64,000 nucleotides of DNA, taken from the NCBI GenBank assembly GCA_963745075.1, contig CAVUWV010000023.1, positions 40,618 through 104,617 on the forward strand, in the 5' to 3' direction. Source of the stretch: Candidatus Hydrogenedentota bacterium (GTDB lineage Bacteria; Hydrogenedentota; Hydrogenedentia; Hydrogenedentales; SLHB01). Shown one piece after another: positions 35,142 through 51,131 of this stretch (its first letter is position 1; every line of letters begins with the position of its first letter). Under the pieces are notes generated by a model. The model was not told where the DNA came from. It saw only the letters and a program-made list of their open reading frames with translations, and did no database searches. The position numbers and the translations under genes were made by a program.

Positions 35142-36836
35142 TTATCGGGCGACGTTAAGAAGGGTTTCCAGCATGCGGTCGGCGATGGTGATGACGCGGG
35201 CGGACGCTTCGTAGGCGCGCTGGAAGAGCAGCATGGAGGTGACTTCTTCGTCGAGGTTGACGCCGGACACCTCCTGACGGCGGGCGTCGAGGTCCTGGAT
35301 GAAGGCGTTTTCCGTATTCAGGACGTCCGTATTGGAACGGCCGTCGACGCCGAGCGTGGCTACGGTGGACTGATAGAATTCCGCGATGGTAGACGAATTG
35401 CTGTCCAGCACCTTGGCGGTGCGCAGGTCCGCCATGGCCAGGGCGGCGGAATTGTCACCGGTGTTCGACAGGTCGGTGCTGAAACCCGACGAGAGCAACG
35501 CGGGGTTATTGGCGAGATCGGGATTGAGTGCAATCGTGCGGGCGTCGGTGCCGGTAAACAGGCCGTTCAATCCCAGTGCCGGTAACGCGCCGGTCGAGTC
35601 ATTGGCGAAGGAAAACGAGTAGGTTGCGTCGGGGGAGATTTCAAGCTGGTTGCCGTTCACCACTGCATTGAGATTTCCGACGGTGTTGAGGTCTGTGGCG
35701 AGGTCGTTCAACGTCGTTGCGCCGGTAATCGTAATCGTGGTCGTGGTGGGCGTGCCGGCGGAGTCGTAGACGACGACGTCGAAGGTGCCGGGCGTTACGG
35801 TGAAAGGGAGCCCCGCGGAAACCAGGGGATCGGTTGGGGCGTTCACTTCATTGGTGCTGGTCAGGGCCGACGAGTAGGCTTCGAGGCCGCGTCCCTGGCT
35901 GTGAATTGCGTTTAGTTGCTGGATCAGGGCGCCGGCAATCTCGTCGATTCGCGCGTCCTGCTCGGGAATCACCGTATCGCGAATGGTCAGGGCCCCGAAT
36001 ACCTCGCCGCCGCGCACGTCCACCAGCGAGTTGTCGTCGGCGAAGCGTAACTCGACCAAATCGCCGCGTTCAGGGTCCAAGGCCGGGTTGCGGACGGCGG
36101 AAATCTCGCGTGCGCGGGTCGTGTCGACCAGGATGGCGCTGCCAATCTGGACCTGGACCTGGCCGGTCTCGCTCTCGTGATAGGTGATATTGACAATCTT
36201 GCCCAGTTGATCCAGGAGTACGCCGCGCTGGTCCCGCAAGGAACCGGCGGTCCGGCCCGACGCTTCGATTTGCTGGATCTGCCGGTTCAACTCGTAGATG
36301 CGCTGGGAAATGGAATTGATTTCCGGCACTTGGTTGCGGATTTCTTCGTTGGCGTTGGTCCGGAGTTGATCGAAGCGGGAAACGAGTTGGTTGAGATCGG
36401 TGGCGACGGCATCCGCTTCAGAGAGAAAGGCCTCGCGAACGGGGAGTGATTCCACGTTATTGGCGTAATCGTGCAAGGCGTCAAAGAATCGGTCCAAGCG
36501 GGTGCCGAACCCGTTGTCGCTAGGCTCTAAGAAGGTGTCCTCAATGAGGTTATAGTACTGGGCTTGAACCTCGGCGCTGCCCAGACCGGCGACCTGCCGC
36601 ACGTACGCATTGTCGAGAAACCCGTCGCGCAGCCGCGCGATCTGGGCGATGCCGACGCCGCGCCCGATCTGACCGGCGGGGGTGTTGATTGGGAAGAGTT
36701 CGACCAATTCGGCCCGCTGGCGGGAGAAGCCGGGGGTGTTCACGTTGGCGATGTTATTGCCGGTAACGTCGAGCTGGATCTGCGCGGTACGCAGACCCGA
36801 AGTCCCGATACTGAGCGCACTGAATAACGTTCCCAC
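35142..36836 (-). CDS. flgK: Flagellar hook-associated protein FlgK
   Basis: GLRTAQ..L.VTGNNIANVNTPGFSRQR, GRGV, L.DQR..L...L, SGVNLDEE...ML.FQRAYEASARVI. Confidence 0.95.
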   Translation of the reverse strand: MGTLFSALSIGTSGLRTAQIQLDVTGNNIANVNTPGFSRQRAELVELFPINTPAGQIGRGVGIAQIARLRDGFLDNAYVRQVAGLGSAEVQAQYYNLIEDTFLEPSDNGFGTRLDRFFDALHDYANNVESLPVREAFLSEADAVATDLNQLVSRFDQLRTNANEEIRNQVPEINSISQRIYELNRQIQQIEASGRTAGSLRDQRGVLLDQLGKIVNITYHESETGQVQVQIGSAILVDTTRAREISAVRNPALDPERGDLVELRFADDNSLVDVRGGEVFGALTIRDTVIPEQDARIDEIAGALIQQLNAIHSQGRGLEAYSSALTSTNEVNAPTDPLVSAGLPFTVTPGTFDVVVYDSAGTPTTTTITITGATTLNDLATDLNTVGNLNAVVNGNQLEISPDATYSFSFANDSTGALPALGLNGLFTGTDARTIALNPDLANNPALLSSGFSTDLSNTGDNSAALAMADLRTAKVLDSNSSTIAEFYQSTVATLGVDGRSNTDVLNTENAFIQDLDARRQEVSGVNLDEEVTSMLLFQRAYEASARVITIADRMLETLLNVAR

Positions 36837-36960: not shown

Positions 36961-37054
36961 GCGCAGGGGGTTAACGGGTTCTAACTGCTTGTGGTGCAAG
37001 AGTATGGCAGGCAACTCTTTCCGCTCGGGGCAAAAGGTGCCGGTGGCCGGGATC

Positions 37055-37202
37055 AAATCCGAAATCCGAAGCTCGAAATCCGAAACAATTCTGAATGACC
37101 GAAAGGGGGAAATGGTCCGAATAAACCTGTGCTGTGACAACCTGTCGTACCCTGCCGGTTCTTTGGGAACCGGTATTTGAGATCAGAGATTTGAGATTTC
37201 AG
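37055..37202. repeat. Two opposed 7-nt periodic repeat tracts
   Basis: AAATCCG AAATCCG AAGCTCG AAATCCG (37055-37082) and ATTTGAG ATCAGAG ATTTGAG ATTTCAG (37175-37202). Confidence 0.75.
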
Positions 37203-37311: not shown

Positions 37312-37359
37312 CTTTAATGTAAAAATAGAATTGCAAAAATGCAGCGTTGGTGTTAGCAT
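37312..37359 (+). promoter_or_regulatory. Sigma70 promoter with UP element and no downstream CDS
   Basis: AT-rich tract TTTAATGTAAAAATAGAA, TTGCAA (37331-37336)-N17-TAGCAT (37354-37359), extended -10 TG. Confidence 0.65.
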
Positions 37360-37364
37360 GAAGC

Positions 37365-37485
37365 CAACGGCAGGAACGACGTACGAGAGCCACTTTGTGA
37401 GCGTCCGATAAACGGACAATAAGTGTGGCCCGAGTATATGCCCCTAGTGCCTATAGGGCTCTCGACGCAGTTCCTGCCGTTGTTG
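37365..37485 (+). ncRNA. Candidate structured non-coding RNA of unknown family (~120 nt, four-way junction)
   Basis: Starts at the predicted TSS; perfect 13-bp closing stem CAACGGCAGGAAC/GTTCCTGCCGTTG; inner stem CGAGAGC/GCTCTCG enclosing three helices. Confidence 0.55.
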
Positions 37486-37659
37486 TGTGCGGGGGAATCG
37501 GAAGAATCTGAGCGTTTCCACAACTTCATATGCTCGTACTCGACAGCGCTTTGACCCCTACCCTTTTGCGCAAAGACCATTCGCGCTGTATGCAGTCGAG
37601 ACCGATGTGAGGTCTTTTTCGAGTACGAGACCGAGTACGGGCTATTTGGGGAACACGGC

Positions 37660-51104: not shown

Positions 51105-51131
51105 TAAAGTTTTCGTTCGGCCCGCCGATAA
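51105..51131 (+). promoter_or_regulatory. Consensus sigma28 (FliA) promoter
   Basis: TAAAGTTT-N11-GCCGATAA, exact match to the extended sigma28 consensus. Confidence 0.8.

Follow-up and report, generated by a model that had tools for sequence, protein, structure and literature searches.

An order-wide structured RNA family of Candidatus Hydrogenedentota with an unusual one-unit versus multi-unit architecture

Introduction

Few stand-alone RNAs are conserved across a whole bacterial order, and most of those known belong to the core machinery: 6S RNA, SRP RNA, RNase P RNA and tmRNA. CsrB/RsmZ-type sponges carry repeated modules with many unpaired GGA motifs on a transcript of 300-400 nt. Aptamers and small ribozymes are often built on a three-way junction. 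Bacterial Y RNAs follow a two-module plan with the 5' motif GNCGAAN0-1G or GGUCCGA (as described in passages of PMC4201824), and several paralogues can lie side by side (passages of PMC4201824 and 10.1101/312249).

Here we describe an RNA encoded in a 64,000-nt stretch of contig CAVUWV010000023.1 (positions 40,618 to 104,617 of the forward strand, assembly GCA_963745075.1), hereafter called the window. An earlier note on this DNA had proposed an undescribed, stand-alone structured RNA with its own promoter. That proposal is well supported by covariation, by the occurrence of the RNA in 71 genomes with a single copy per genome, and by the lack of any Rfam match. The family is real, uncatalogued and order-wide, and it has an unusual architecture in which the same unit occurs alone or as one of several.

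Results

A predicted RNA gene with its own promoter

The features of the locus are collected in Table 1. The promoter elements listed in the earlier note (an AT tract followed by TTGCAA, 17 nt and TAGCAT) all lie where it had placed them, and an extended -10 TG is present in addition. The perfect 13-bp terminal stem is in the sequence, as are the paired segments CGT-A-CGAGAGC/GCTCTCG-ACG and the hairpin GTCCG-ATAAA-CGGAC, and the gene orientations were also correct: flgK is divergent from the RNA and ctaA is convergent.

Table 1. Positions in the window of the RNA gene, its predicted promoter and the elements of its predicted fold
Feature	Position	Strand	Remarks
AT-rich UP-like tract	37312-37330	+	5' of -35 box; from sequence and genus alignment
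-35 box TTGCAA	37331-37336	+	sigma70-type promoter; 17-nt spacer
Extended -10	TG 37351-37352, TAGCAT 37354-37359	+	predicted +1 at 37366
RNA gene	37366-37482	+	~117 nt; monomer form corresponds to 3' domain D4 of long forms
P1a 5' strand	37365-37377	+	pairs with 37470-37482; compensatory changes at most pairs
Bulged helix (CGU, 1-2-nt bulge, CGAGAG)	37380-37389	+	pairs with 37459-37467; most sequence-conserved element; candidate protein-binding helix
P2 5' strand, imperfect	37391-37397	+	pairs with 37452-37458; leads into three-way junction
P3 hairpin	37403-37417	+	conserved UCC/GGA stem, variable loop
P4 hairpin	37423-37442	+	register uncertain: 37427-29/37440-42 (GGC/GCC) or 37423-27/37437-41
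J4/2 single-stranded junction strand	37443-37451	+	conserved only within subclades
P1a 3' strand and U/G-rich tail	37470-37490	+	no classical intrinsic terminator

The UP-like tract is kept within the genus, as judged from the genus alignment, and is not general across the RNA family; TTG(C/G) -35 boxes are found in most homologues. With 8 of 12 consensus positions matched, the window promoter falls short of the threshold of 9 in a generic promoter scan and was not called by it; our call relies instead on conserved spacing in the homologues. The best promoter-like site ends 3-9 nt 5' of the RNA in 25 of the 26 genomes of the window's family that carry it, and the gap is exactly 6 nt in 22 of the 26, a test that is partly circular because the scorer was shaped on the same sites. 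In the 26th genome a -10 box is visible at 6 nt and the scorer picked another site. Promoter-like sites of this kind occur about once per 12 kb. A generic terminator scan of the locus found none, and the 3' end has at least six T in 12 nt in 51 of 71 homologues. The segment is almost certainly a real RNA gene, which we infer to be transcribed.

Covariation supports an interrupted helix and a three-way junction

The RNA region folds at -57.2 kcal/mol (z -6.01; none of 200 shuffles was equally stable), and z is < -2 in all 37 genera. What is conserved is a long, interrupted and bulged helix of ~30 bp that ends in a three-way junction bearing two short hairpins, and covariation in aligned homologues shows this fold. 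In the model of P1 plus P3, 88.7% of cells were paired, with two-sided changes at 20 of 26 pairs (42 sequences). None of 500 shuffles of the uncurated alignment reached these values, in a test that is inflated by the relatedness of the sequences, and slid controls were 31-51% paired. The top 6 of 5927 pairs by corrected mutual information, computed from a structure-blind alignment of one genome per genus (37 genera) and without a model of phylogeny, all fall inside the proposed helices. P1a supplies four of the top five covarying pairs. The top pair, 37393-37456, is paired in 33 of 35 sequences of the 37-genus set and continues the long helix into the junction.

When P1 and P3 were constrained, 39 of 42 homologues folded with one three-way junction, and the second hairpin, P4, was present in nearly all homologue folds. 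P3 had 90.5% of cells paired and carried the UCC/GGA motif in 57 of 71 copies. Sequence conservation is concentrated in this stem and in the basal bulged helix; loops and linkers vary. The columns of the bulged helix are at least 90% conserved among 42 sequences, which is beyond what pairing needs, and its pair 37387-37461 covaries. The core motif of this helix was found in 42 of 71 copies. It decays in some families and is absent in family f13 and in the paralogous domain D3 of the long forms described below.

The earlier note had drawn a four-way junction, which is not the conserved fold: pair 37393-37456 excludes both of its additional arms, CACTT/AAGTG and CCTA/TAGG. In this genome alone the four-way form lies at most 1.0 kcal/mol from the optimum. 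Three of four genus-mates keep only two of the four pairs of the CCTA/TAGG arm. CACTT/AAGTG is pairable in all six closest homologues (5/5 pairs in five, 4/5 in one), with compensatory changes in one genome (G064). The arm may therefore represent a local alternative fold in that subclade.

The RNA does not match known families

No Rfam match overlapped the window RNA at E ≤ 10, and a search of 40 homologous loci against Rfam gave no gathering-level match except an unrelated tRNA. The genome has a genuine 6S gene (61.7 bits, contig C21) and a genuine small SRP gene (60.4 bits, contig C8), and the window RNA matched neither RF00013 nor RF00169. The tmRNA gene lies on contig C10 and the RNase P gene on contig C28. 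Since all four are located elsewhere in the genome, the window RNA is an additional RNA. It gave no Rfam match to 5S rRNA or RNase P (the 5S gene of the genome was not located) and no tRNA or tmRNA call by ARAGORN, in keeping with the earlier statement that it lacks the signatures of SRP, 5S, tRNA and tmRNA. In the literature on Hydrogenedentota we found no paper on such an RNA, which the supplements of motif-discovery studies could still list; the phylum goes unmentioned in the passages of one such study that we cite (PMC8632094).

Several other identities were considered and rejected. A sarcin-ricin mimic, a kink-turn and group II intron domain V were compared by eye with their consensus and set aside because of the covarying Watson-Crick register at 37387-37461. 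An SRP Alu domain or a 5S remnant had no model match and, again by eye, no consistent kissing loops. The internal ATG frame of a possible small peptide is not kept. A riboswitch or cis leader was discarded on the ground that the downstream ORFs lie in both orientations and belong to unrelated families.

Distribution in the phylum

BLAST identified a copy in four of five genus-mates; in three of them it sits between flgK and ctaA, and in the fourth elsewhere. With a first covariance model, eight genomes from further genera were added, all of which have the same promoter directly 5' of the RNA, and a second model brought the total to 42 of 135 genomes of the phylum. A third model, applied to the 93 remaining genomes with 27-150 candidates scored per genome, added 1/29, 19/32 and 9/32. 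Antisense shadow matches, short secondary matches in G053 and G096, and one match in G098 (52 nt, E 0.039) were left out of these counts. In total, the iterated models found the RNA in 71 of 135 Hydrogenedentota genomes and 11 of 15 families (f1 26/54, f2 1/1, f4 2/2, f5 12/15, f7 1/1, f8 3/4, f9 1/1, f10 5/6, f11 11/23, f12 1/1, f13 8/10). There is one copy per genome, including the window's own.

The RNA was not found in the other 64 genomes, which include near-complete ones, four of five genomes of one genus, and all members of families f3 (0/14), f6, f14 and f15 (0/1 each). Renewed searches of negative genomes with the model (5 genomes), a promoter pattern (5) and same-genus BLAST (5) found nothing. 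Not found does not equal absent here, because few candidates were scored per genome and a sequence profile built from the copies of other families misses even the window's own copy. In the negative genomes the RNA may have become too divergent to be detected, or it may be dispensable. The copy in G064 (L038:1501-1619(-)) has the 3' junction sequence common to the window's genus, and no copy was found in four other genomes of G064's own genus; this distribution may reflect loss or transfer of the RNA.

A pattern scan of all species genomes returned 29 stretches, which covariance models divided into 15 true and 14 chance matches. Thirteen of the true matches are titled Candidatus Hydrogenedentota or its order, one is titled only as a metagenome assembly, and the last, titled Nitrospirales, has the same sequence as one of the copies found in the phylum. 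On these grounds we assign the window's genome to Hydrogenedentota. Since well under half of the known members fit the pattern (16/42 for a close variant), distant relatives outside the phylum could be missed. Viral contigs gave 0, 3 and 7 pattern matches, none of them a member, and phage records gave no match to a long form. In metagenomes, 8 of 34 pattern matches were real; all lay on contigs >1 kb and therefore gave no hint of the ends of the RNA. The family has so far been seen only in one uncultured phylum, Hydrogenedentota.

The unit occurs alone or at the end of longer predicted transcripts

In the window's family the unit stands alone, and in nine other families it ends a longer predicted transcript. 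In 37 genomes of those nine families the same promoter lies 190-430 nt 5' of the RNA, giving predicted transcripts of 299-543 nt with mostly three to four separate stem-closed domains. The last domain is the window-type unit, often preceded by a paralogous domain. Of 38 upstream parts, 14 (from five families) contained a match between a profile of the last domain and the P3-P4 part of the domain before it (E ≤ 0.0027), compared with 0 of 38 reversed controls; the 38 parts comprise the 37 long forms and one short form, G048. The first two domains, D1 and D2, often fold alike. Their profiles did not recognize left-out families and gave no cross-family sequence signal, and profiles of D1-D3 found no separate copy in the window's own genome. 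FG-GAP-repeat genes lie 5' of the long form in families f5 and f9 (L060, L061, L063, L069).

Family f13 mostly has a form of ~150 nt. In a 40-genome RpoB tree, families with the long form make one clade (SH-aLRT 99, by a quick method) with f13 nested inside it, so we regard the f13 form as a secondary shortening. With the root of this tree unplaced, the one-unit and multi-unit forms may stem from duplication or from truncation.

Neighbouring genes and other elements

Flanking ORFs belong to unrelated families, lie in both orientations and change between genera (63 ORFs scanned of 81, leaving out those of the window, of three genus-mates and of near-duplicates within genera). Unrelated neighbours, one copy per genome and a promoter at a fixed distance argue that the RNA is an independent gene. 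The only neighbour that recurs within the window's family is an N-acylglucosamine 2-epimerase gene, which in three genera lies 3' of the RNA in the same orientation (L040, L041, L057, L062, L058). The end of ctaA extends into the 3' strand of the RNA in three genus-mates.

The earlier note had floated a link to flagellar control, which the neighbourhood does not favor: flgK adjoins the RNA only in four genomes of one genus, with a flagellin gene 5' of the RNA in one further genome, and flgK has its own sigma28-type promoter at 36960-36933(-), kept in a genus-mate. A second sigma28-type promoter lies at 51105-51131(+). Both have the form TAAA, 15-16 nt, GCCGATAA; none is expected in 100 shuffles. 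The flgK gene (35142-36836(-)) is apart from other flagellar genes, with sugar-isomerase-like and cyclase-like genes next to it on the 3' side. A short palindromic repeat, present in ~50 copies genome-wide, lies at 37040-37120 in the interval from flgK to the RNA promoter.

Two further RNA-like elements were seen. One is a second stand-alone RNA-like gene of ~123 nt (L157:2070-2195(+), equivalent to G000:C27:57869-57994; z -5.3) that has a promoter, a long helix, a three-way head and a U tail, as the window RNA does. It is present with compensatory changes in five of five genus-mates, where it lies 5' of a GTPase gene with its own promoter. From protein motifs we take this gene to be ychF-like, and ychF genes are preceded by the same promoter consensus as the window RNA. 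The C27 RNA had no Rfam match and no detectable sequence link to the window RNA or to any long-form domain, and its linkage to ychF was not seen in 24 inspected genomes of other genera. The other element, on the minus strand of G000:C34 near 54794, is a near-perfect long hairpin of 133 nt behind a promoter-like site (z ~-11).

Discussion

We propose that the window RNA is a trans-acting non-coding RNA of Candidatus Hydrogenedentota. It would be transcribed from a housekeeping promoter of its own, of sigma70 type, without dependence on the neighbouring genes, and its 3' end is probably set by trimming back to the stem. It would act by binding a protein, as a decoy or a tether, a reading that we judge to be evenly poised between right and wrong. 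The bulged helix near the paired ends would provide one docking site and the junction head a second surface. Conservation is embedded in helices and loops are variable: most columns that are conserved from family to family fall in the bulge or in paired regions. This pattern is easier to reconcile with a protein ligand than with an aptamer, a ribozyme or an sRNA that pairs through a seed. Evidence against protein binding comes from the patchy detection of the RNA and from a bulge motif that has decayed both in f13 and in the paralogous domain. Since the unit is the last of several domains and its head is duplicated in the domain before it, transcripts of the long-form clade, as predicted, would either display two heads or be cut into separate RNAs.

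A wider and tentative idea, unlikely as it stands, is that a repeatable unit of ~110 nt, a rod plus a three-way head, defines a novel kind of bacterial RNP or RNA scaffold, in which gene architecture determines the valency. Transcripts would then carry one unit in one branch of the order and three to four in the other, the C27 RNA would be another member, and the partner would be an RNA-binding protein or complex without a known RNA ligand.

The main rival to protein binding is oligomerisation by RNA only, in which the P4 pentaloop docks in the P3 stem, monomers assemble and the long forms are covalently pre-linked multimers. We think this quite unlikely. Heads are indeed repeated on one transcript, and the P4 loop motif C(A/G)YGUGNAG is present in 24 of the 45 copies from other families; its GUGNA core resembles a GNRA-type pentaloop, and next to it is a CC:GG stem that hardly varies. 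Yet the motif is found in 0 of 26 copies of the window's family, and we saw by eye no consistent loop-loop covariation between P3 and P4. Natural RNA-only oligomers exist (passages of PMC12286853), but the window RNA is far smaller and simpler than OLE, ROOL and GOLLD, whose RNA-only complexes assemble by kissing loops and A-minor contacts. A base-pairing regulatory sRNA with its seed in J4/2 or a loop would account for a junction strand of 7-11 nt that is unpaired and conserved within subclades. It is improbable given that no unpaired stretch is conserved across families, that Hfq and ProQ were not found in the window's own genome (89.7% complete), and that J4/2 accounts for none of the 26 exact matches of 13 nt found in the rest of the genome. 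We also find it decidedly improbable that the RNA binds a small ligand in trans or is catalytic; the three-way junction and tandem heads that recall tandem aptamers speak for this, whereas the junction strands vary in length and sequence, no downstream gene class is linked, and no Rfam ribozyme or riboswitch model matched.

Equally doubtful is a Y RNA that has diverged strongly and links a nuclease to an unrecognised Ro-like protein. The length of ~117 nt, paired ends, bulged helix, multi-hairpin head, U-rich tail and tandem paralogues would suit it, but Y RNAs are encoded within a few kb of a Ro60/Rsr gene, and here TROVE/Rsr was found in none of the 63 neighbour ORFs, not in the window's own genome, and in only 3 of 135 genomes, one of which has the RNA, on another contig. 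Likewise, GNCGAAN0-1G occurs in 3 of 71 copies and GGUCCGA in 0 of 71; for the T and D arms, a T-loop motif is present anywhere in 4 of 71 and ARAGORN made no call; and no Y_RNA, YrlA or YrlB model of Rfam matched. An untranscribed DNA element such as a MITE, REP or bidirectional terminator could have paired ends, a changing neighbourhood and the overlap with ctaA, but this is very improbable for a sequence with one copy per genome (against ~50 of the neighbouring repeat), a promoter at fixed spacing and G-U-tolerant covariation over the whole order; the many dispersed copies of a MITE are not seen. Finally, a flagellar regulator, acting as a sigma28 decoy or CsrA sponge, is hardly credible, even with flgK divergent in four genomes, csrA present in the window's own genome (on another contig) and ANGGA in 26 of 71 copies. 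The hairpin sequence CCGATAA, which the earlier note had compared with the sigma28 -10 box, already differs in genus-mates, with CCGATA in 1 of 71 copies, and GGA is paired in P3. CsrA occurs in 104 of 135 genomes of the phylum and in 1 of 23 of family f11, which suggests lineage-wide loss; the RNA is nevertheless kept in 10 CsrA-negative f11 genomes and in the 100%-complete G011, and it was not found in f3, where 12 of 14 genomes have CsrA. The flagellar idea fails on the rarity of the CCGATAA motif together with the persistence of the RNA where CsrA was not found.

The family offers material for comparison. Its 117-nt minimal, 300-540-nt multi-unit and secondarily shortened forms can be compared to find the functional core and to study how tandem duplication gives rise to large modular RNAs. 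Although the phylum is known here only from assembled genomes, the small form lends itself to synthesis and probing in vitro.

Among described RNAs, 6S (RF00013) and small SRP RNA (RF00169) are likewise stand-alone, with strong promoters and paired ends, and act through protein; unlike them, the window RNA has no central bubble with a long terminal stem and no match to SRP domain IV. CsrB/RsmZ share with the long forms the repeated modules on one 300-400-nt transcript and the presence of GGA, but here each unit has one or two GGA, which are paired, and the distribution does not follow CsrA. OLE, ROOL and GOLLD (passages of PMC12286853) are also stand-alone, highly structured and of poorly known function, and the long forms reach 300-540 nt. 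The window RNA differs from these in having no sequence or model match, no evidence of a pseudoknot, no copies found in phages, and ~110-nt repeated units that also exist alone. In layout the family resembles the Y RNAs (Yrn1, YrlA, YrlB), which correspond in size, in paired ends with a bulged helix, in a distal multi-hairpin module and in adjacent paralogues, although in the present family the paralogues lie behind one promoter on one predicted transcript. Three defining features of Y RNAs were tested and not found, and we therefore do not class it with them. The bulged terminal helix and distal multi-stem module are present in layout only, with a different sequence: the RNA is Y-RNA-like in plan, but is not a Y RNA.
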